A stretch of 55,207 bases of DNA, from assembly GCA_041666305.1 (NCBI GenBank), contig JBAYHD010000005.1, forward strand, positions 1 through 55,207. The letters are read 5' to 3'. A program made the translations under genes and the position numbers. Positions 2,949 through 55,136 of the stretch are shown here, one piece after another. The DNA is from Minisyncoccota bacterium. GTDB lineage: Bacteria; Patescibacteriota; Minisyncoccia; Phycocordibacterales; Phycocordibacteraceae. Under the pieces are notes generated by a model that ran no database searches, was not told where the DNA came from, and saw only the letters and a program-made list of their open reading frames with translations. Position 1 is the first letter of the stretch. Every line of letters starts with the position of its first letter.

Positions 2949-5057
2949 TTATGAGCCGCTCAATGCTTTGCGGGTGCGGGACTTTTTTATTTTCGGTCCG
3001 TTCCCTTCCAGTTTGTAGAGCTCGTCGCGGACGAGGGCGGCGGTTTCGAAGTCGAGTAACTCTACCGCCTCGCTCATCTCTTCCCTCTTTCTCTTTATAA
3101 ACTCCTTGGGGTCGTCCTTATAGGCAAGCGTATCGAGCACGAGGAGTTCATCTATCGTGCGCTGATGCTCGGTGCGCATAGATGCCGCGATGTCGTGTAT
3201 CTCTTTCTTGATGGTCTGCGGAGTAATGCCATGCTTCTCGTTATACGCGAGCTGTATTGCACGGCGACGGTTCGTCTCGCCGATAGCTCGCTCAAGGGAG
3301 CCGGTCATCACGTCGGCATACAGAATCACCCGCCCAAGAACATTTCGCGCCGCACGCCCGATGGTCTGGATGAGCGAGGTCTCGCTCCGCAGAAATCCTT
3401 CTTTATCAGCGTCGAGAATGCCCACGAGTTCCACTTCCGGTAGGTCGAGTCCTTCGCGAAGCAGGTTCACGCCGACGAGAATATCAAAGCCGCCTTGTCG
3501 GAATTTGGTGAGGATATCAATGCGGTCAATGGTTTTTACATCCGAATGCAAATATTCCGCCTTAATACCCTTCTCGCGCAGGAATGCCGCCAAGTCCTCC
3601 GCCATCTGCTTGGTGAGCGTAGTTGCGAGCGCGCGACCCCCGCGCTTAATAACTATTTCCGCTTCAGTAATAAAATCCGCGATCTGTCCCTTGTATTTCG
3701 CACTGTCATGTATGGCAGTGCCATTCCCTCCATATATGGAGGGAATCACTACGGCACCTTCGGAAACAGGGCGGACGGTGAGTTCGGGGTCGATGAGACC
3801 GGTCGGACGGATGACCTGCTCCACGATTTGTTCGGAATGAGCTTTTTCATACGGGCCCGGCGTCGCGCTCGTGTACAGCGCTTGGCCAATACGCTCTTCA
3901 AATTCTTCAAAACGGAGCGGACGATTGTCACGCGCGCTTGGCAAGCGAAAACCGTACTCAACGAGAACATCCTTACGCGACTTATCGCCGGCATACATAC
4001 CGCCGATTTGCGGGACGGTGACGTGCGATTCGTCTATGACGGTCAAGAAATCCGCGGAGCCGTCTTTCTTGTGCGGGAAATACGAAAGGAGCGTATGCGG
4101 CGGCTGGCCTGGAGCACGCCCGTCGAAGTGTCGCGAATAATTTTCAATGCCGCTCGTATATCCAAGCTCGCGAATGAGCGCGAGGTCGTGAAGCGTGCGG
4201 CGCTTGATGCGCTCGGCTTCGAGCGGTTTCTCTTCCCTTTTGAATTTCGCGAGTTGTTCTTCGAGCTCGAGCTTGATGTCCTCGATAGCGCGGTCGCGCT
4301 CTTCAATGCTGGTCACGAAGTGCTTCGCCGGGAATACGAAGACCGACTTTGGCTCTTTCATCTTTGCGCGCGAGACCGGGTCGAGTTGATGTATGGAAGC
4401 GACGACGTCGCCTTCGAACGTAATGCGGAAAATCGCACGCTCGTTCACCGGCATAAATTCAAGCGAATTGCCGATGGCGCGCACCTGCCCCGGATTGAGA
4501 TCGGCGTTCGTGCGCTCAAAATAAATGCCAACGAGCTTGCGAATAAGCGCCGCGCGATTCTCCGCGGCGCCTCGTTCTATCTTCACGTGCACTTTCTCAT
4601 ATTCCTCTGGCGACCCGAGGCCGTAGATAGCCGAGACCGACGCGACGATAATAACGTCTTTGCGTGTGAGGAGCGCCTGCGTCGCGGCGTGGCGGAGCCG
4701 GTCTATCTCGGCGTTTATCATCGCCTCCTTCTCTATATAGGTATCCGAGTGCGCGATATATGCCTCCGGCTGGTAGTAGTCGTAGTACGAAACGAAGTAG
4801 TGGACCGCATTCTCAGGGAAAAATTCCCGATATTCCTGCGCGAGTTGGGCAGCGAGTGTCTTGTTGTGCGCAAGCACCAGAGTCGGCTTATCGTGCTGGG
4901 CAATGACATTGGCCACGGTAAAGGTCTTCCCCGAGCCGGTCACACCGAAAAGCGTCTGATGTATCAAACCCTTCTCGAGTCCTTCTTCGAGTTTTTTGAT
5001 GGCCGCCGGCTGGTCCCCCGCCGGTGGGTATGGGGTATGCAATTTGAAATTAGCCAT
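2949..5057 (-). CDS. uvrB: Excinuclease ABC subunit B
   Basis: 702 aa; GVTGSGKT Walker A, DESH box, LREGLDLPEV, C-terminal UVR-like motif. Carries an extra segment containing two palindromes (3700-3746). Confidence 0.97.
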   Translation of the reverse strand: MANFKLHTPYPPAGDQPAAIKKLEEGLEKGLIHQTLFGVTGSGKTFTVANVIAQHDKPTLVLAHNKTLAAQLAQEYREFFPENAVHYFVSYYDYYQPEAYIAHSDTYIEKEAMINAEIDRLRHAATQALLTRKDVIIVASVSAIYGLGSPEEYEKVHVKIERGAAENRAALIRKLVGIYFERTNADLNPGQVRAIGNSLEFMPVNERAIFRITFEGDVVASIHQLDPVSRAKMKEPKSVFVFPAKHFVTSIEERDRAIEDIKLELEEQLAKFKREEKPLEAERIKRRTLHDLALIRELGYTSGIENYSRHFDGRAPGQPPHTLLSYFPHKKDGSADFLTVIDESHVTVPQIGGMYAGDKSRKDVLVEYGFRLPSARDNRPLRFEEFEERIGQALYTSATPGPYEKAHSEQIVEQVIRPTGLIDPELTVRPVSEGAVVIPSIYGGNGTAIHDSAKYKGQIADFITEAEIVIKRGGRALATTLTKQMAEDLAAFLREKGIKAEYLHSDVKTIDRIDILTKFRQGGFDILVGVNLLREGLDLPEVELVGILDADKEGFLRSETSLIQTIGRAARNVLGRVILYADVMTGSLERAIGETNRRRAIQLAYNEKHGITPQTIKKEIHDIAASMRTEHQRTIDELLVLDTLAYKDDPKEFIKRKREEMSEAVELLDFETAALVRDELYKLEGNGPKIKKSRTRKALSGS
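3723..3746. repeat. 24-nt perfect palindrome inside uvrB
   Basis: ATTCCCTCCATATATGGAGGGAAT; in-frame IPSIYGGN. It is preceded by the near-perfect 22-nt palindrome GCACTGTCATGTATGGCAGTGC at 3700-3721. Confidence 0.95.
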
Positions 5058-5142: not shown

Positions 5143-5454
5143 ATGACCATTATCGTCAAACGCAAGCGCCGTGAACCGAAATTCGAGAAAGAAATGGGAG
5201 AAGTAGCCGCGGCGGCAAGAAGAATGAGCATACGTAAGCTGATCAGCATTCAAGAAGTCCTGGTCAAGAAACGAAAAGCGGATGATAAATTAAAGGCTGC
5301 TGCAATCAGACGCTATGCCGATAAACACAATCTTCATCTCTATTGTCACCGACACCCGTGGATAGCCGATCTATATAGCGGTGAAAAAATCCGCTTGCCA
5401 CCGGGCTTCTATGCGAAGGTCAATGGCGTTATTGAGAATATCATCGCAGAATGA
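5143..5454 (+). CDS. Hypothetical small basic protein
   Basis: 103-aa ORF; AGGGAGA SD-like sequence upstream, TTGACA-N16-TACTAT promoter at 5061-5088, hairpin terminator after stop. Confidence 0.5.
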   Translation: MTIIVKRKRREPKFEKEMGEVAAAARRMSIRKLISIQEVLVKKRKADDKLKAAAIRRYADKHNLHLYCHRHPWIADLYSGEKIRLPPGFYAKVNGVIENIIAE

Positions 5455-5478
5455 CTGATCGTCTCGATGCTTATGGGA

Positions 5479-5502
5479 AAGGGACCACACGGTCCCTTTT
5501 TT
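5479..5502 (+). terminator. Intrinsic terminator
   Basis: AGGGACC-ACAC-GGTCCCT followed by a T-run. Confidence 0.7.
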
Positions 5503-5504
5503 AT

Positions 5505-6809
5505 TTAGATATAGTAGTCACGAATGAAGTCTGCACGATAGTCGTCAAAGCGGCCGTTAAGAATAGCCTCGCGCGCGCCGGCGACCAAATTCAAGATGAA
5601 GCCGACATTGTGCATTGAGCAAATGACCGAGCCGAGCATCTCCCCGCTCCGCACCAAATGTGCCATATACGCCAATGTGAACTCCACACCCATGTGGGAC
5701 TTCGTAAGTCCCACATCAGAAAGAAGGGTGAAGTCGGTGCGGTATTTTTCGCCTTTGAGGTGGGCAATGCCATGCCTGGTGTAGATGGAGCCGTGACGGC
5801 CGATGCGTGTCGCCGCGACGCAGTCAAAGAGGTCCATACCGTTTGCAATGCCTTCGAGGATGTCACCCGGCTCGCCGATGCCGAGGAAGTGCCGCGGTAA
5901 TTCTTCTGGCAACTCACCCACTGCCGCCGCGAGCGCGCTCCGCATGTCCTCTTTTGAGAAAGAGCCGCCGATGCCGATGCCGTCAAAGCCGAGTGAAGCG
6001 ATCTCGCGTGCAGATTCTTTGCGCAAGTCCTCATGACGCCCGCCCTGCACAATGCCGAATATTGCCTGCCCGGACACTACGTCTCGCATTGCGCTTTGCG
6101 CATGGCCGGAGGCCGATGCGAGAAGTAGTGTACGGGCCTGCTTCTTTTCTTCATATTCGAGACGACGGTGATAATCGAGAGACCGTTTTGCCCAGCGATG
6201 AGTCCGGTCCATCGCTTCCTTCTGATATTCGTACGGCTCGGTTGGCGAAGTGCATTCATCGAAGGCGAAGAAGATGTCTGCTCCCAAGGCGTGCTGTATC
6301 TCGACTGAACGTTCAGGCGTGAAGCGGTGGAGCGAGCCGTCGAGATGTGAAGTAAAGGTGACTCCTTCGTCGTCGATGACGGCGAGTTGTCCGTGCTGGC
6401 TCGCCACGTCTTCATCATAAATCACCGGCTTCTCACTTGGAGGCGAAACCTCCAAGTCTTCTTTCGTAAATTTGGAAATGGTTTTCCCGAAGGCCGCGCC
6501 AAGCGAGAACACTTGAAAACCGCCCGAGTCGGTCATCGTGGGTCCTTCCCAGCCCATAAATTTCCCGAGCCCGCCGGCGTCCTGCACAATCTTTTCTCCC
6601 GGCTGGAGATACAGGTGATAGGTATTTGCGAGCACCACTTGCGCACCCAGTTTCCCGAGCGCATCCGGAAGAATTCCCTTCACATTCGCTTTCGTCCCCA
6701 CCGGCACGAAAGCCGGCGTCTGGATGACGCCGTGCGGAGTGGTCAGTGTGCCGGCGCGCGCCCGGCATCCGGGCGCGCGCTTCTCAATCTTGAATTGTAT
6801 CGCGCTCAT
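5505..6809 (-). CDS. tgt: tRNA-guanine transglycosylase (queuine tRNA-ribosyltransferase) homologue
   Basis: 434 aa; TDSGGFQV, GIVQGG and LFDCVAATR motifs. The CxCxxC zinc motif is not visible (see findings). Confidence 0.9.
   Translation of the reverse strand: MSAIQFKIEKRAPGCRARAGTLTTPHGVIQTPAFVPVGTKANVKGILPDALGKLGAQVVLANTYHLYLQPGEKIVQDAGGLGKFMGWEGPTMTDSGGFQVFSLGAAFGKTISKFTKEDLEVSPPSEKPVIYDEDVASQHGQLAVIDDEGVTFTSHLDGSLHRFTPERSVEIQHALGADIFFAFDECTSPTEPYEYQKEAMDRTHRWAKRSLDYHRRLEYEEKKQARTLLLASASGHAQSAMRDVVSGQAIFGIVQGGRHEDLRKESAREIASLGFDGIGIGGSFSKEDMRSALAAAVGELPEELPRHFLGIGEPGDILEGIANGMDLFDCVAATRIGRHGSIYTRHGIAHLKGEKYRTDFTLLSDVGLTKSHMGVEFTLAYMAHLVRSGEMLGSVICSMHNVGFILNLVAGAREAILNGRFDDYRADFIRDYYI
5692..5716. 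repeat. 25-nt palindrome (11+3+11) inside tgt
   Basis: ATGTGGGACTT-CGT-AAGTCCCACAT; encodes VGLTKSHM in tgt. Confidence 0.95.
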
Positions 6810-6924: not shown

Positions 6925-7482
6925 TTGACCATGAAAAAGATGTTGAGTAGGATCGCCATTTTGGCGAGCATCACTCTGATCAGCGGCTGTGCCTCACAAG
7001 GCCCGGCCGTAAAGCGAACCGAAACGTTCCCCGACGGCGAGAAAATTACTATCGTCGCCCACAAACAGAACGTCCCGGATTACTGGCTCGACCGTGACAA
7101 TCTCAAACTCAATTACTTTGTCCGGGGAGATGAAGTAACCGACAGGCAACTCGAGGCAATCAACAAAGCCGAGAAGCTGTGCCGGTTCTTCAACGGCGAG
7201 GTCCGCCCGAGTAATTTGGTTGCGGTACTTAGCAGTGGCGTAATCTACGCTATCGCCGGCGCTACTGGCCTGTACTTGGGCTCGGCCGCCTTCACCGGCG
7301 CAACCCAGGTATACCGGAACCAATCGGCTGAATATGGTGCATACGCTTCAGGCACCGGCGGTCTTGCCAACGGCTTGATCACGCTCGGAGGCCAGACGTA
7401 TACCTTCGAAAACTGCGGCCGGGAAATCCTTGCCGACATGCCCAACTACAAAGTGAAGGTGTTGGGAAAAAGTCCGTACTAA
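6925..7482 (+). CDS. Hypothetical lipoprotein
   Basis: 185 aa; signal peptide with lipobox LISGC; GGAGG SD; promoter-like TTGACA-N16-TATCCT at 6840-6867. Confidence 0.6.
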   Translation: MTMKKMLSRIAILASITLISGCASQGPAVKRTETFPDGEKITIVAHKQNVPDYWLDRDNLKLNYFVRGDEVTDRQLEAINKAEKLCRFFNGEVRPSNLVAVLSSGVIYAIAGATGLYLGSAAFTGATQVYRNQSAEYGAYASGTGGLANGLITLGGQTYTFENCGREILADMPNYKVKVLGKSPY

Positions 7483-15287: not shown

Positions 15288-16001
15288 TTATACCAAATGC
15301 ACGACCGTGTAGAGCACGAGTGCGCCAAAAAGCGTCATGATGGTCGTGAGCGCGCGCGGATGCCGATGATGGCTTTCAGGAATGAGGTCGCTTGCCGAGA
15401 GGTAGAGGAACGAACCGACGAAGACGGCAAGTACGAGACCGATGGATGATTCGGGAATGCGGAAAAGAAGCGTGGAGGCGGCGCCGGCAACCGGCGCCGC
15501 CGCATCGATCAAGAGCCAATTAAATGCGCGACGCCAGCTCCCGCCGTTTTTCAGCACCAGGTTTACCGTATTGATACCGTCAGAAAAATCGTGCGTGAGC
15601 ACGGCGGCCGTTACGACGATGCCGACCGCAGCGGACGCCTGAAAGCCGATGCCGATCGCCATGCCGTCCAGAAAACTGTGCGTGGAGAGTGTGAGTGCGC
15701 CGAAAAACCCCCGCGGGGTGTTGATTTCTGAGTCTTCTTCGTGTGTGTGGAGAAGAATGAGTCGGTCAAGCAGCAAGTATCCGAAAAATCCAATGGCAAT
15801 GAAAAATGATATGGTCGCGCTGGTATGATATATCATACCAGCTTGAATCGCCTCGGGCAGGAGATCAAAAAGAGCAACGCCCGCGACCGCACCCGCCGAG
15901 AAGCCGAGGATGAGATGAAGCTTGTCGCGGAATCGCAGGGCGAATGAACCTCCTATAAAAGTGGCGACCGAAGCGGCCAGGGCGATATATAGGATATTCA
16001 T
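15288..16001 (-). CDS. ZIP family metal transporter
   Basis: Start trimmed to MNILYIALAA; HSFLDGMAIG and HDFSDGINT motifs. Contains the 24-nt palindrome at 15819-15842. Confidence 0.85.
   Translation of the reverse strand: MNILYIALAASVATFIGGSFALRFRDKLHLILGFSAGAVAGVALFDLLPEAIQAGMIYHTSATISFFIAIGFFGYLLLDRLILLHTHEEDSEINTPRGFFGALTLSTHSFLDGMAIGIGFQASAAVGIVVTAAVLTHDFSDGINTVNLVLKNGGSWRRAFNWLLIDAAAPVAGAASTLLFRIPESSIGLVLAVFVGSFLYLSASDLIPESHHRHPRALTTIMTLFGALVLYTVVHLV
15819..15842. repeat. 24-nt perfect palindrome inside the ZIP transporter gene
   Basis: GCTGGTATGATATATCATACCAGC; in-frame AGMIYHTS. Confidence 0.95.
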
Positions 16002-16070
16002 ATTGCTAATAGTACCGCATAGAAATAATAAACCCACCGAAGCGGACTTATTGTCCTTTCTTGGTGGGTT

Positions 16071-16727: not shown

Positions 16728-16807
16728 GTTGTAATTCCCTCCAAAAATTGAATGGATGTACCAGTATTCTGTCGTCCTTTTACAACTTTTGGTACCAAAA
16801 CGCAACT

Positions 16808-16843
16808 GTCTCAATTTTTATCCTATAGGATAAAAATTGAGAC
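16808..16843. repeat. 36-bp perfect AT-rich palindrome, intergenic
   Basis: GTCTCAATTTTTATCCTA|TAGGATAAAAATTGAGAC; lies between the DsbA terminator and the histidine-phosphatase gene. Confidence 0.9.
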
Positions 16844-16861
16844 ACCCGATAAAATACGCAA

Positions 16862-16888
16862 CGCGCGACCGGCGGAGCCGGTCGCGCG
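16862..16888 (-). terminator. GC-rich hairpin terminator downstream of the DsbA-like gene
   Basis: 12-bp stem CGCGCGACCGGC/GCCGGTCGCGCG; T-rich on both sides. Confidence 0.6.
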
Positions 16889-16984
16889 TTCTTTCTGGAT
16901 TTACTACCAAGCGAGCCGAGCGACGAACGAGTTCGTACTCGATTCGTCTGAGGCGAGCGCAGGGAGAAAGCTTGCGAGCAAAGC

Positions 16985-18225: not shown

Positions 18226-18260
18226 CCCGGCCGCGCATCTGATGCGCGGCCACTCTGTTT

Positions 18261-20043: not shown

Positions 20044-20071
20044 GAACCCCACTTCGGTGGGGTTCTTTTTT
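20044..20071 (+). terminator. Intrinsic terminator
   Basis: GAACCCCAC-TTCG-GTGGGGTTC followed by TTTTTT. Confidence 0.85.
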
Positions 20072-20072
20072 A

Positions 20073-20097
20073 TTTAGGGACATCGTAAGTCCCTAAA
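20073..20097. repeat. Same palindrome family, intergenic copy
   Basis: TTTAGGGACAT-CGT-AAGTCCCTAAA, immediately after the stop of gene 20098-21240. Confidence 0.85.
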
Positions 20098-21240
20098 TCA
20101 TTGATACTGGACGTAGACTGGCGCGGGGGTGAGTTTCAAGACTTCGGCAGGCGTGAGGAGGCCGTCCGCCGGCGGTCGGCTGTCGTTTTTATAAAAAAGC
20201 TTGACGCCGGTGAACTGCACCGGTTCCGGCACGATGACTCTGCTGTAGGTATTTCTTTTTTTCGCTTTCGAGCCGAATCCGTCCATATCCATCACTATCT
20301 GCACTTCAGGTAGGGGCTGTATCTTTTCATAATTCGTTACCATGTCCTGGGTGAAGCGATGGATGATGAGCACCTTCGGCGGCAAGTGATTTTCGCGCAC
20401 AATGCGCGCAAGGTACTCGGCGGCATAATTGATATCAATGGCATCAAAAGTGCCGATGACTGTGCCGGGCCGCTCGCCGTGCTTCATCGAGAATTCCGGG
20501 TCGATGCCGAGGTGAACCTGCGGCATCTTCAAATACTTTTCAAGTTGCGGTAGCTCGTATTGAAGCGTACTGAGTGCCACCTGCACATCGAGGAATACAA
20601 GACCGTGTACCCGGTTCGCCAAATCGAGCGCGTGGTCTATCTGATCGTCCGGCATGCGCAGAATGTATTTCCCTTCTTTGCCGGCACCCGCCTGCGCAAC
20701 AGTCGCGATGTAGTGAATCGCCGGTACGGCCGGCGTCGCAGGGTCTGCGGCTGCCCATTTTGCCGTCGTGCTCGCGAGCATGGAGAGCATTTGATCGGTC
20801 GGGTATTCGCCGAGCACGCCCATGCCTTTTGAATAAAAATTGCCGTAATACGCGACGATGCGTTTGAACGGAAGAATGGCATCGGCATTCGGATAGACCG
20901 TGCTCACGGGCCAGAGGTCGCCCTGTACCTGCACGGACGACGAGGCTGTTGAGAAAGGGAGTGCGGATGTTGATGATGCGACCACCGCAGCCGCAACAGC
21001 TGCCGCCGCACTTTCATATATGATAGTGCTCGATGCAATATCGAAATGCGCGAGCGCGAGCATTCGTGCGTTGTAGTCCGCCTTATTGAGTTCGGGCAGC
21101 GGAATAAAGCGCTCTGCCACACTGGCAGTCTCCGAGCGATACTCGGTTGCGACGAGACCGGAGTAGCCGAATGCATAGACGACCGCGAACGCGGCGATGC
21201 TCGCGCCGGTCACTCGTGTCTTGGTACTCATTGGGGCCAT
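20098..21240 (-). CDS. Hypothetical membrane-anchored protein
   Basis: Start trimmed to MAPMSTKTRVTGASIAAFAVVYAF (TM helix); about 380 aa; no family recognised by eye. Confidence 0.5.
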   Translation of the reverse strand: MAPMSTKTRVTGASIAAFAVVYAFGYSGLVATEYRSETASVAERFIPLPELNKADYNARMLALAHFDIASSTIIYESAAAAVAAAVVASSTSALPFSTASSSVQVQGDLWPVSTVYPNADAILPFKRIVAYYGNFYSKGMGVLGEYPTDQMLSMLASTTAKWAAADPATPAVPAIHYIATVAQAGAGKEGKYILRMPDDQIDHALDLANRVHGLVFLDVQVALSTLQYELPQLEKYLKMPQVHLGIDPEFSMKHGERPGTVIGTFDAIDINYAAEYLARIVRENHLPPKVLIIHRFTQDMVTNYEKIQPLPEVQIVMDMDGFGSKAKKRNTYSRVIVPEPVQFTGVKLFYKNDSRPPADGLLTPAEVLKLTPAPVYVQYQ

Positions 21241-22643: not shown

Positions 22644-23681
22644 TTATTCAGGAAGCAGCTCTAAAACCGCTAATTCCAGGGGGAGCGCGAGAATGGGCGC
22701 GTAGCGGATGCGGTCGGCGGCGTTCAGGAACGCCAACATGGTCTGGTGCGTAATGTAGGACCTCGGAGGTCCTACATGGGCGAATTTTTCAAGGGCGGAA
22801 AATTCGTCCGCGCCGAGCTCGCTTTGGAGCGAGGCGCGGAGTTCAGGAGCATAGCGGATGAGAAGTGTGCTGCGTAAGGCCTCCAGCACGAGTTCTAGAA
22901 ACAGCTTCATATCTACATCGGCCTTTGCCGCTTTCTCGATTGCATCCAATGCCTTTCCGCGTTCGCCCTCTGCGAGCGCGTTCACGAGCGCGTGCACCTG
23001 CTCTCTGCGCGGCGCACCGGTCGCCGCTTCTACCGTCTCGCGCGAAAGCGATTTACCTTCCGTTGCTGAAAATACTTTCTGCAAAACCGAAAGCGCATCG
23101 CGATATGAGCCGTCGCCGAGCATTGCAATAAGCTCGGCGGCGTCCGGTGCGAGCGTATATCCCTCTTTCTTCGCCACCGCGGCGGTCATTCTCGCCAATA
23201 CTGCGCGCGTCGGCTTCCTGAATTCAAATACCTGGCAGCGCGATTGCACCGTCTCCGGCACTTTCGTGAACTCGGTTGTCGCGAGTATGAACACCGCGTG
23301 CGCCGGCGGCTCCTCCAGCGTTTTCAGAAACGCATTCCATGCGCCTTTGGAGAGCATATGCACCTCGTCCAAGATGTACACCTTGTACGGCGAAGCGAAC
23401 GGGAGCGTGTACACGCCCTCGGCCAAGGCGCGAATGTCTTCCACTCTGTTATTGCTCGCCGCGTCTATCTCGTAGAGGTCGTTCTCGGTGCAGCCGATGG
23501 CGCTCGCGAATATGCGCGCAACGGACGTTTTCCCCAGTCCGCGCGTGCCGGCAAAGAGATACGCGTGCCCTATCTTCCCCGACTTGGCCGCTTCCTCAAG
23601 CGGCTTCGTCACTTGCTCCTGCCCCACGACATCCGCAAAAGTAGCGGGACGATGAATGCGATAGAGGGACTGGTGCGCCAT
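22644..23681 (-). CDS. dnaX: DNA polymerase III subunit gamma/tau (short form)
   Basis: 345 aa; GTRGLGKTS Walker A, ILDEVHMLS, LKTLEEPP, SRCQVFEF. Confidence 0.9.
   Translation of the reverse strand: MAHQSLYRIHRPATFADVVGQEQVTKPLEEAAKSGKIGHAYLFAGTRGLGKTSVARIFASAIGCTENDLYEIDAASNNRVEDIRALAEGVYTLPFASPYKVYILDEVHMLSKGAWNAFLKTLEEPPAHAVFILATTEFTKVPETVQSRCQVFEFRKPTRAVLARMTAAVAKKEGYTLAPDAAELIAMLGDGSYRDALSVLQKVFSATEGKSLSRETVEAATGAPRREQVHALVNALAEGERGKALDAIEKAAKADVDMKLFLELVLEALRSTLLIRYAPELRASLQSELGADEFSALEKFAHVGPPRSYITHQTMLAFLNAADRIRYAPILALPLELAVLELLPE
22753..22777. repeat. Same palindrome family inside dnaX, with compensatory changes
   Basis: ATGTAGGACCT-CGG-AGGTCCTACAT; encodes HVGPPRSYI. Confidence 0.9.
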
Positions 23682-24256: not shown

Positions 24257-25258
24257 CTATACGAGCGGACCAACAGCGTCAAGTGTCATTTTCTCGAGCT
24301 CAGTAGCGCTCTCCGCGGTCATGAGTTTTGTGCGCAGCTCCGCTGCGCCGGCAAAGCCGGTAACGAACGCTTTGATATGCTTTTTCAAAATCGCAAAACT
24401 TTTAGCGGGCGTTATCTTTTCAAAATCGTATGCGAGTTCAAGGAGCGCCGCGAGTTTCTCGGCGAGCGGCGTGTCTTCCGTTTTTCTGCCGGCGAATACC
24501 CATGGATTACCGAACATTGCACGGCCGAACATTGCACCGTCGCATCCTGACTCTGCAACTTTTGTCCGCGCGTCTTCCATGTCCTGCACGTCGCCATTAC
24601 CGATAAGAAGCACTTTCGGATTTACGCGGTCGCGCAACGCGACCGCTTTTTTCATCAGCTCCCAATCGGCGGGCACGAACGACATCTCTTTGCGCGTACG
24701 CAAATGGAGAGTGATGGCGACGGGATTCGCTTCAAGAAGCGCCGTCAGCCATTCATCAAGCGACTCTTTGTTATATCCGATGCGTGTTTTCACCGAGACC
24801 GGCAACGGACTGGCTTCCTTAGCGGCACGAATAAGCTCCTTGGCGAGCGCGGGATTCTTCACCAATGCTGCGCCCGCGCCCTGTTTCTCAATGCTTTTAT
24901 CCGGACAGCCCATATTGAGGTCAACACCATCAAAACCTAGCTCGGCAACGAGCTTCGTCGCATACGTAATCATCTCCGGTTTGCCGGAAAAGATCTGTGC
25001 GGCAATGGGCCGCTGTTCTTCTGTAAACTGCAAATCCCGCAATAGGGGGTTGCTGGTATGATATATCATACCAGCACGCGATTCGATTTCCCCCCTTTCG
25101 ATCAGATGGAAAAGTCCGTCGGCCGAAACGAATTCCGTCCAGAACACGTCCGGCTTCCCATGTTTCGCCACGAGCGCGCGAAAAGCAACGTCGGTGACGT
25201 CCGCCATCGGTGCCATCACGAAAAATGGCTTAGGTAAGCCTTGCCAGAACGATTTCAT
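24257..25258 (-). CDS. tRNA-dihydrouridine synthase
   Basis: Start trimmed to MKSFWQGL; MAPMADVTD, DLNMGCP and VKTRIG motifs. Contains the 24-nt palindrome at 25052-25075. Confidence 0.85.
   Translation of the reverse strand: MKSFWQGLPKPFFVMAPMADVTDVAFRALVAKHGKPDVFWTEFVSADGLFHLIERGEIESRAGMIYHTSNPLLRDLQFTEEQRPIAAQIFSGKPEMITYATKLVAELGFDGVDLNMGCPDKSIEKQGAGAALVKNPALAKELIRAAKEASPLPVSVKTRIGYNKESLDEWLTALLEANPVAITLHLRTRKEMSFVPADWELMKKAVALRDRVNPKVLLIGNGDVQDMEDARTKVAESGCDGAMFGRAMFGNPWVFAGRKTEDTPLAEKLAALLELAYDFEKITPAKSFAILKKHIKAFVTGFAGAAELRTKLMTAESATELEKMTLDAVGPLV
25052..25075. repeat. Identical 24-nt perfect palindrome inside the dus gene
   Basis: GCTGGTATGATATATCATACCAGC; in-frame AGMIYHTS. Confidence 0.95.
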
Positions 25259-25278
25259 ATTGCCTATTCTAGCAGGTA

Positions 25279-25307
25279 TTGACAAATATAGCGATTAGGT
25301 ATATATT
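25279..25307 (+). promoter_or_regulatory. Sigma-70-like promoter with no downstream ORF
   Basis: TTGACA-N17-TATATT. Confidence 0.5.
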
Positions 25308-25394: not shown

Positions 25395-26223
25395 ACTGGC
25401 TTTGCGCTTTCTTTTTCAAATACACCTTGCCATCGAAACGTAAGTCAACATATTCAATTGAGCCGTCCGCAAGATTGAAATTATCGCGCGCGGACACGAG
25501 CGCGGTAAATGCATTGTTTTCATGTCCGAGAAGGTAGGTGATGCGCGTACCGCCCACCACATAGTCATCCACCTCATCACCCCGCAGGACAACTTTCACG
25601 GCTGGCGAGCCAAGCGTGTCAAGCTGACGCGCGAAATCAAAAGCGTGCGGCAAACGTTCGGCATACGCGATGGTCGCATGAAGAGGTTCTAATGTGTCAT
25701 TTACAAGCGGCGCATACAGTACAAATGAATTGATAGTTTGCGTGGAACTCGCAGCAGCGGCAAAAATGTAACCGCTCGCGTCAAAGACGTAACAGTATTC
25801 GTCCACACCGGGCGTAGGAGCGAGACCGCACCAGCGCGCAACGGGGGCGCGATCATCCGTTTTTATTGAGATTCCGGTCAAGCCGTTGCGGAATATGGAA
25901 ATGGCGGCGATGTCCGGATGCGCAGCGAGAATGTCGGCACGAATATGCGATTCCGGAAAAAAGAAAGCGGAATCGCGCGGGATAACGCCGAAATAACTTC
26001 CTTGCATTTCGGCTTTTGCATAATCAGCAAATGAGGCGTCCGAACCGTACACGACAACGCTCGAAATGCGGACCGAACTTTGCCAGAGACCCCAGATAAG
26101 CGCGCCGAACAACACGCAAAGAAGAACGCAAAATGCGATGAGACCGCGGCGGCGGCGCAGCCGCCGCCGCTCCGCAAGCCGCTCGCTACCCTGCGGTTGG
26201 GCCGATGATGCTCTTCCCAACAT
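25393..26223 (-). CDS. FtsQ/DivIB-like cell division protein
   Basis: 276 aa; basic N-terminus, one TM helix, POTRA-like segment; overlaps the serS 3' end by 38 nt. Confidence 0.6.
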   Translation of the reverse strand: MLGRASSAQPQGSERLAERRRLRRRRGLIAFCVLLCVLFGALIWGLWQSSVRISSVVVYGSDASFADYAKAEMQGSYFGVIPRDSAFFFPESHIRADILAAHPDIAAISIFRNGLTGISIKTDDRAPVARWCGLAPTPGVDEYCYVFDASGYIFAAAASSTQTINSFVLYAPLVNDTLEPLHATIAYAERLPHAFDFARQLDTLGSPAVKVVLRGDEVDDYVVGGTRITYLLGHENNAFTALVSARDNFNLADGSIEYVDLRFDGKVYLKKKAQSQ

Positions 26224-55030: not shown

Positions 55031-55136
55031 CATACTATATAAAATACCACGCGCGGCCCGCCTCTAGCCGCGCAATCAACACATAATGAACCACAGCCGC
55101 CTAGAAGGCGGCTGTATCCTTAGCGCACTAAAGTGC

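Follow-up and report, generated by a model that had tools for sequence, protein, structure and literature searches.

The 55,207-nt stretch of Minisyncoccota DNA analyzed here (the window) contains four copies of a short palindrome, three of which lie within unrelated core genes. All three host genes are on the minus strand and are intact open reading frames (ORFs): tgt, for tRNA-guanine transglycosylase (5505-6809; Pfam PF01702), a dnaX-like gene for DNA polymerase III gamma/tau (22644-23681; Pfam match), and a class-V aminotransferase/cysteine-desulfurase-like gene (42544-43722; Pfam PF00266). A preliminary description of the window had reported the four palindromes together with in-frame peptides in unrelated core genes, and the sequence bore out both observations. 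The palindrome in tgt, ATGTGGGACTT-CGT-AAGTCCCACAT (5692-5716), is read as D-VGLTKSH-M, with ACG as the sense-strand loop. The copy in the cysteine-desulfurase-like gene has the same arms with the loop inverted, ATGTGGGACTT-ACG-AAGTCCCACAT (43211-43235), and is read as HVGLRKSHM; with its neighboring bases it forms a perfect 13+3+13 palindrome, CCATGTGGGACTT-ACG-AAGTCCCACATGG (43209-43237). The dnaX copy is a variant, ATGTAGGACCT-CGG-AGGTCCTACAT (22753-22777), read as HVGPPRSYI. All three coding copies share one reading phase, in which the 3-nt loop is itself a codon.

The fourth copy is an imperfect intergenic relative, TTTAGGGACAT-CGT-AAGTCCCTAAA (20073-20097), with one A.A mismatch, at a position of the stem where other members of the family often lack a base pair. 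It extends to ATTTAGGGACAT-CGT-AAGTCCCTAAAT (20072-20098), has the inner core GGGAC-xT-CGT-Ax-GTCCC in common with the family, and lies between convergent genes, directly preceded by a terminator hairpin (20044-20065) with its T-run. A weak candidate for a fifth member, AATAAGGGTTT-ACG-AAATCCTTAAT (35192-35216), is found just 3' of tRNA-Leu. It has two mismatches, and since 0.55 matches of this kind are expected by chance, its membership is uncertain; its arm is similar to GGGTTT variants at loci of the transposase described below. With four to five copies in 55 kb, the density of the family in the window is ~1 per 14 kb.

Chance recurrence had been considered negligible, and randomized sequences agreed. 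The exact 11+3+11 pattern ATGTGGGACTT-N3-AAGTCCCACAT matched twice in the window and never in 100 dinucleotide-preserving shuffles, and the degenerate core TRGGACNT-N3-ANGTCCYA matched four times (5692-5716, 43211-43235, 22753-22777 and 20073-20097) compared to a mean of 0.23 in the shuffles. Folded as single-stranded DNA (ssDNA), each copy yielded the full hairpin at -8.4 to -14.6 kcal/mol (z -5.8 to -6.9). The perfect copies are 25-29 nt long, with an 11-13 bp stem, a 3-nt loop and DNA folding energies of -10.5 to -14.6 kcal/mol, and the window palindromes fall within the 20-40 nt of the short hairpin-forming repeats called repetitive extragenic palindromic (REP) elements.

Distribution in other genomes and reading phase

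The preliminary description had staked its reading on further copies elsewhere, and many were found. Scanning one genome per GTDB species for the exact pattern, we recovered the 25-mer in 28 stretches from at least 10 metagenome-assembled genomes (MAGs), all of them Patescibacteria (Kaiserbacteria/Paceibacterota), and in none of the genomes of other GTDB species. At least 12 exact copies were present in the near-complete MAG JALHPE01. The proteins of the window are 82-88% identical to proteins of MAGs carrying the 25-mer, which indicates that the window belongs to that lineage. The viral contigs of IMG/VR contained no copies, and a phage origin of the palindrome was rejected on this ground.

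Host genes in the fetched loci included those for AtpG, MurD, UvrC, ValRS, AlaRS and PurH, as well as PheT (three sites) and TsaD (two sites). Three of the four to five window copies are in frame within housekeeping genes, as are roughly half of those in the loci fetched by pattern; the extragenic location typical of REPs does not describe these palindromes. Outside the transposase gene the exact variant was seen at ~13 independent sites, and every one of them is read as x-VGL[T/R/P]KSH-[M/I]. Read otherwise, this variant would encode MWDFVSPT or CGTYEVPH, and with the loop in one of its two orientations a stop codon would arise. Other arm variants also occur in an MxDLV-type phase. The phase preference thus varies by arm variant, as expected under selection on the encoded peptide. 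On the sense strand the loop was ACG at ~11/13 confirmed host-gene sites, an excess that may stem from selection on the peptide or from an insertion mechanism specific to one strand.

Insertion at orthologous sites

Alignment of the host proteins with their orthologs addressed a question raised earlier, whether the peptide is an insertion or the product of convergent coding constraint. Orthologs without the palindrome carry different, shorter peptides, which excludes convergent coding constraint. The best-resolved site is that in tgt, where some members of the closest Tgt subclade carry a hairpin peptide and the others a short empty loop (SEGSD or SKDSY). The "empty" tgt orthologs are exactly 24 nt shorter and become collinear with the filled allele once 24 nt are removed from the latter: the filled tgt minus T GTG GGA CTT ACG AAG TCC CAC AT encodes S-E-G-G-E-F, collinear with the empty S-E-G-S-D-F. 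The added unit is therefore 24 nt placed within a Glu codon, a length that keeps the frame. The left arms among filled orthologs at this site were ATGTGGGACTT, ATGTGGGACGT, ATGTGGGACAT, ATGTGGGACCT and ATGTAGGACGT, with the right arm matching in each. Stem position 10 was T:A, G:C, A:T or C:G, that is, all four pairs, and position 5 was G:C or A:T; the two sides of the stem have changed together. The structure model of the window Tgt was poor (mean predicted local distance difference test score, pLDDT, 63), and shows only that residues 366-378 are coil.

At the position of the palindrome, distant Paceibacteria have the canonical zinc motif CxCxxC, and the Kaiserbacteria-related clade has no cysteines (DPETxVPGTE). 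Throughout this clade (window 5505-6809; loci L029-L108) the three zinc-binding cysteines have been lost and the histidine kept. We rejected the palindrome as the destroyer of the zinc motif, since the cysteines are gone clade-wide with or without it (DPETxVPGTE or SEGSD).

The site in the cysteine-desulfurase-like gene is a hypervariable loop, in which most orthologs have ARxGxxxxR and others have different hairpin-type peptides. At the dnaX site the closest orthologs (82-88% amino acid identity) have 12 nt (encoding KEKG or AGKD) compared to 24 nt in the window, and two other species hold different hairpin variants at the same spot. In MurD the 25-mer is identical at 25/25 positions in three species with flanks that are 60-64% identical; these loci were chosen for exact matches, which biases the identity, and despite this selection it indicates constraint or homogenization. 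At one PheT site two species share the arms and have the loop inverted.

Orthologs of tgt and of the gene at 42544-43722 (P0013, P0041, P0122, P0130, P0142, P0190 and others) also carry other peptide patterns with mirror-complementary codon pairs, such as EVRLPYQV[GR]KSDF and SEVRTSDVLTS. These protein sequences suggest further palindrome families in the same variable loops of other lineages.

A transposase gene accompanied by the same hairpins

A gene for a ~220-aa HUH/Y1 transposase was present in five of the 28 loci fetched by pattern, each from a different MAG. One palindrome at these loci was placed 5-25 nt upstream of the start, one inside the gene and one directly after the stop codon. 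The protein matched Pfam Y1_Tnp (PF01797, IS200-like) with an E value of 4.5e-6, the matches scoring 22.6-27.2 bits at a cutoff of 23, and the HUH motif H-x-H-L-L and the motif Y-x-H-L-N-P were invariant in 48 sequences. It carries an extra C-terminal region of ~80 aa. A sequence search of the PDB with the transposase profile gave no match. A fold search with the AlphaFold model (pLDDT 83) returned 4ER8_A as the best PDB match (E 2e-6, TM 0.66), followed by ISDra2 TnpA and IS608 TnpA (2XO6, 2A6M). 4ER8 is the structure of a REP hairpin in complex with the REP-associated tyrosine transposase (RAYT) of E. coli (PMC3479197). The transposase has 217 relatives in the genomes of GTDB species, and a metagenome protein collection contains more than 6,000 of its proteins; their source annotations are 'transposase' or 'hypothetical'.

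Co-variation of hairpin and transposase was followed at 80 further transposase homolog loci (L109-L188). A perfect hairpin with a 3-nt loop was present at the transposase gene in 64/80. Of the three possible positions (upstream, internal, downstream), two or more had the same arm in 52/80 and all three in 26. The arms differ between loci, with 29 distinct 9-nt arms in the sample, and the loops were almost always CGT/ACG (97) or CGG/CCG (23). Two or three transposase paralogs per genome are common, each with different hairpins at its gene. The transposase locus L136 carries exactly the dnaX variant of the window, and in MAG JBAZRE01 the hairpin in tgt is the hairpin of that genome's own RAYT-like gene (L029 vs L165). 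Most variants have GTGG or GTAG at positions 3-6, but paired with CCAC or CTAC and not single-stranded; some RAYT-linked variants lack the GTRG tag, for example ATATCGGGAGAT. The orientation of the flanking copies followed no clear inverted-pair rule, the upstream and downstream loops differing in 18 loci and matching in 14.

In nearly every transposase homolog the internal copy sits at the same place, aa 42-53, after helix 1 and ahead of the strand that leads into HUH. Two phases are used to read it (27 vs 20 loci), and the segment it encodes has pLDDT <50 and is predicted to be disordered. Fixed position together with two reading phases indicates that the nucleic acid, not the peptide, is conserved. 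The internal hairpin may be autoregulatory.

Other palindromes in the window

The window holds 14 perfect hairpins with stems of at least 10 bp, compared to a rough back-of-envelope expectation of ~0.4. GC-rich perfect hairpins of unrelated sequence occur at 6754-6780, 15477-15501, 18229-18251, 26146-26170, 36469-36491 and 55093-55115, with 10-12 bp stems and mostly 3-nt loops, some of them within genes; comparison with orthologs showed that the GC-rich hairpin at the tgt N-terminus has not been inserted. A hairpin with a T-run, AAAGGGACC-ACAC-GGTCCCTTT (5478-5499), separates tgt from the convergent ORF 5143-5454 and has the appearance of a common bidirectional terminator, though its arm is similar to the REP core GGGACC. 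Another intergenic element is a 38-nt perfect palindrome, TGTCTCAATTTTTATCC-TATA-GGATAAAAATTGAGACA (16807-16844), followed by a GC-rich 14+3+14 hairpin (16860-16890) and a T-run.

A second, unrelated family of in-frame palindromes has an ATATAT center and 9-10-nt arms (window 3723-3746, 15819-15842 and 25051-25076; locus L269, 1916-1939). The version GCTGGTATG-ATATAT-CATACCAGC encodes AGMIYHTS in a ZIP transporter gene (15288-16037) and in the tRNA-dihydrouridine synthase gene (24257-25285), and likewise in an HhH-GPD (MutY/EndoIII-like) gene on a Hainich groundwater contig. The version ATTCCCTCC-ATATAT-GGAGGGAAT encodes IPSIYGGN within a ~20-aa extra segment of UvrB (2949-5057). Hardly any members of this second family occur in ~1.17 Mb of DNA from other Patescibacteria loci. 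No gene associated with it was found.

Discussion

We believe that the palindromes are probably REP-type elements of a REP/RAYT-like system in Kaiserbacteria-related Patescibacteria, with a cognate transposase. The ~220-aa HUH/Y1 transposase of IS200/RAYT fold would recognize its own hairpin variant, presumably on ssDNA, and is the likely agent copying, excising or homogenizing the repeats; we infer that it mobilizes them and that the genome from which the window derives encodes one. In gene-dense genomes many copies would land in coding DNA and would persist there in surface or variable loops. An inserted unit of 24 nt (eight codons), as at the best-resolved site, would keep the frame, and selection on the peptide would leave almost only the loop-as-codon phase, x-VGL[T/R/P]KSH-x.

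Several features of known REP systems recur here. GTAG-type REPs have 6-13-bp stems, 2-3-nt loops and tags degenerating to GTRG or GTGG; they form sub-families with complementary stem changes, and a minority is intragenic, notably in repair and tRNA-related genes (PMC3733652). The E. coli RAYT binds an imperfect hairpin that has its 5' GTAG unpaired, and its cleavage site is CT (PMC3479197); REPs and RAYTs (TnpA-REP) have been treated by Nunvar 2010 (PMC2817692), Bertels and Rainey 2011 (PMC3116915) and Di Nocera 2013 (PMC3733652). The Patescibacteria elements are likewise short hairpins with stems and loops in the reported range, divided into sub-families with complementary stems; most variants have a GTAG/GTRG tag, although a paired one, and the elements appear to be dispersed over many loci. 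As in REP systems, related genomes have a RAYT-type gene flanked by the same repeats; here it is an HUH/Y1 gene, its paralogs each have their own variant, and 4ER8 is the best structural match.

Other observations weigh against this assignment. The 55-kb window has no transposase gene of its own, and the link of its genome's copies to a transposase would follow from identical sequences in relatives. The protein scored 34.3 bits with the NCBIfam RayT model NF047646, far below the cutoff of 80, and is a distant relative, not an equivalog. Its gene also differs from those of known RAYTs in having a fixed internal copy. Classical REPs are imperfect and extragenic with GTAG unpaired, whereas the Patescibacteria copies are perfect, with the tag paired (GTGG...CCAC), so that both strands present the same element, and about half or more of them lie in frame inside essential genes. 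Two sites depart from a simple 24-nt insertion: in the PheT C-terminal domain (L015, ~7018-7042) DVGLTKSHI replaces nine aligned residues with a net change of 0 aa, and at dnaX the net gain is +4 aa, not 8. These departures may reflect either secondary deletions or loss of target sequence on insertion. Finally, no RAYT is known to have transposed REPs in vivo, and we know of no direct observation of REP spread.

Two other known systems are similar in part. The IS200/IS605 elements IS608 and ISDra2 have the same transposase fold and hairpins at both ends of the gene, and their excision and insertion without target duplication fit the clean 24-nt difference between filled and empty tgt. In IS200/IS605, however, the repeat is the whole gene-carrying unit and the end hairpins are imperfect and unlike each other, whereas in Patescibacteria dispersal is confined to the 25-nt hairpin, and a genome's copies of the gene are diverged paralogs. 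The preliminary description had likened the palindromes to the palindromic elements of Rickettsia (RPEs). This likeness holds insofar as palindromes are dispersed in frame in unrelated functional protein genes and add a peptide to loops. The palindromes are not members of the RPE family, given the GTRG tag, the 25-nt length with an 11-bp stem and 3-nt loop, the RAYT-like transposase, the different lineage and the lack of sequence similarity. RPE-1 is ~100-150 bp long, and we know of no cognate transposase gene flanked by RPEs. The short elements RPE-4 and RPE-6 of Rickettsia are CGTC-tagged (PMC3733652).

The palindromes might instead be host-beneficial duplex sites for a dimeric DNA-binding protein, with roles in chromosome organization, segregation, replication or global regulation; selection would maintain them, they would be tolerated in coding DNA, and the link to the transposase would be secondary or the result of domestication. 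A perfect 11+3+11 dyad is typical of dimer binding, the orthologous MurD sites are extremely conserved relative to their flanks, and an element persists at the tgt site across many species. Unlike a conserved host site, however, the sequence varies between related genomes and tracks the transposase paralogs through 29 arms. The compensatory stem pairs at one orthologous site preserve the hairpin but no fixed sequence to be recognized, an orthologous PheT site has the loop in opposite orientations, and no candidate binder was seen except the transposase. We therefore regard this explanation as unlikely. A protein-binding site, one of the functions first suggested, survives only if the transposase is taken as the protein that probably binds.

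Still less probable, in our view, is an element that acts as RNA, whether as an mRNA hairpin that affects stability or translation or by mimicking the anticodon stem-loop of a tRNA. Transcription within genes is the situation of most copies, and the loop context T-ACG-A or T-CGT-A is kept across nearly all variants; GGGAC-UUACGAA-GUCCC is similar to tRNA-Arg(ACG) with the TadA motif UACG, and the other orientation to tRNA-Thr(CGU). TadA edits UACG hairpin loops, and the excess of ACG on the sense strand of host genes would suit such a role. Over all copies, however, the two loop orientations are equally common (CGT 49, ACG 48), and single-mismatch copies show no preference for G.U over A.C on the sense strand (5 vs 10). 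Copies also lie on both sides of the transposase gene, and an RNA element would not need perfect Watson-Crick symmetry on both strands. The stems of tRNA-Thr(UGU) are unrelated to the palindrome; the 269 fetched loci contained neither tRNA-Arg(ACG) nor tRNA-Thr(CGU). Descent of the palindrome from a tRNA is likewise given a low probability.

We give almost no weight to DNA uptake signals accumulated in coding DNA through biased uptake and recombination: competence genes are common in Patescibacteria, at some sites sequence has been replaced with the length unchanged, and uptake sequences likewise prefer particular reading frames, but the window density is far from ~1 per kb, a 25-nt perfect palindrome is far longer than the known 9-12-nt uptake motifs, the sequence varies between close relatives and co-varies with the transposase, and the tgt copy is a clean 24-nt insertion. 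The same genome-to-genome change of the hairpin with the flanking transposase paralog, together with the low density, disfavors the uptake or segregation site that the preliminary description had listed. Template switching, considered as the source of a general excess of perfect hairpins in the window, was rejected as the origin of this family, as it could not produce one and the same 25-mer in many genomes and at sites that are unrelated.

REPs have mostly been regarded as intergenic, and searches of full-text literature for REP/RAYT or palindromic repeats of Patescibacteria, Parcubacteria or Kaiserbacteria turned up no account of them. A REP/RAYT-type system of this kind, largely living inside genes, is apparently undescribed for Patescibacteria. 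It would be a REP/RAYT-like system filling the genes of the ultra-small, gene-dense genomes of groundwater Patescibacteria, and it offers filled and empty sites in orthologs with a length difference of exactly 24 nt, dozens of transposase paralogs each with its own hairpin variant, which amount to a natural specificity table, and a transposase gene with a copy of the target inside it. Annotators and structure predictors should note that VGLTKSHM-like peptides in Patescibacteria are repeat-encoded loop insertions, not conserved motifs.

More tentatively, this could be a lineage of REP elements adapted to life inside genes, with a frame-neutral mobile unit of 24 nt, a benign flexible peptide encoded in its preferred reading, spread and homogenization by a family of RAYT-like transposases and, in the coding sequence of each transposase, a copy of its own target that is possibly autoregulatory. 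We hold this extension to be possible rather than probable. If true, it would be the first system in which REP mobilization and its specificity code can be read from genomes, through at least 29 co-varying pairs of hairpin and transposase and through filled and empty sites.

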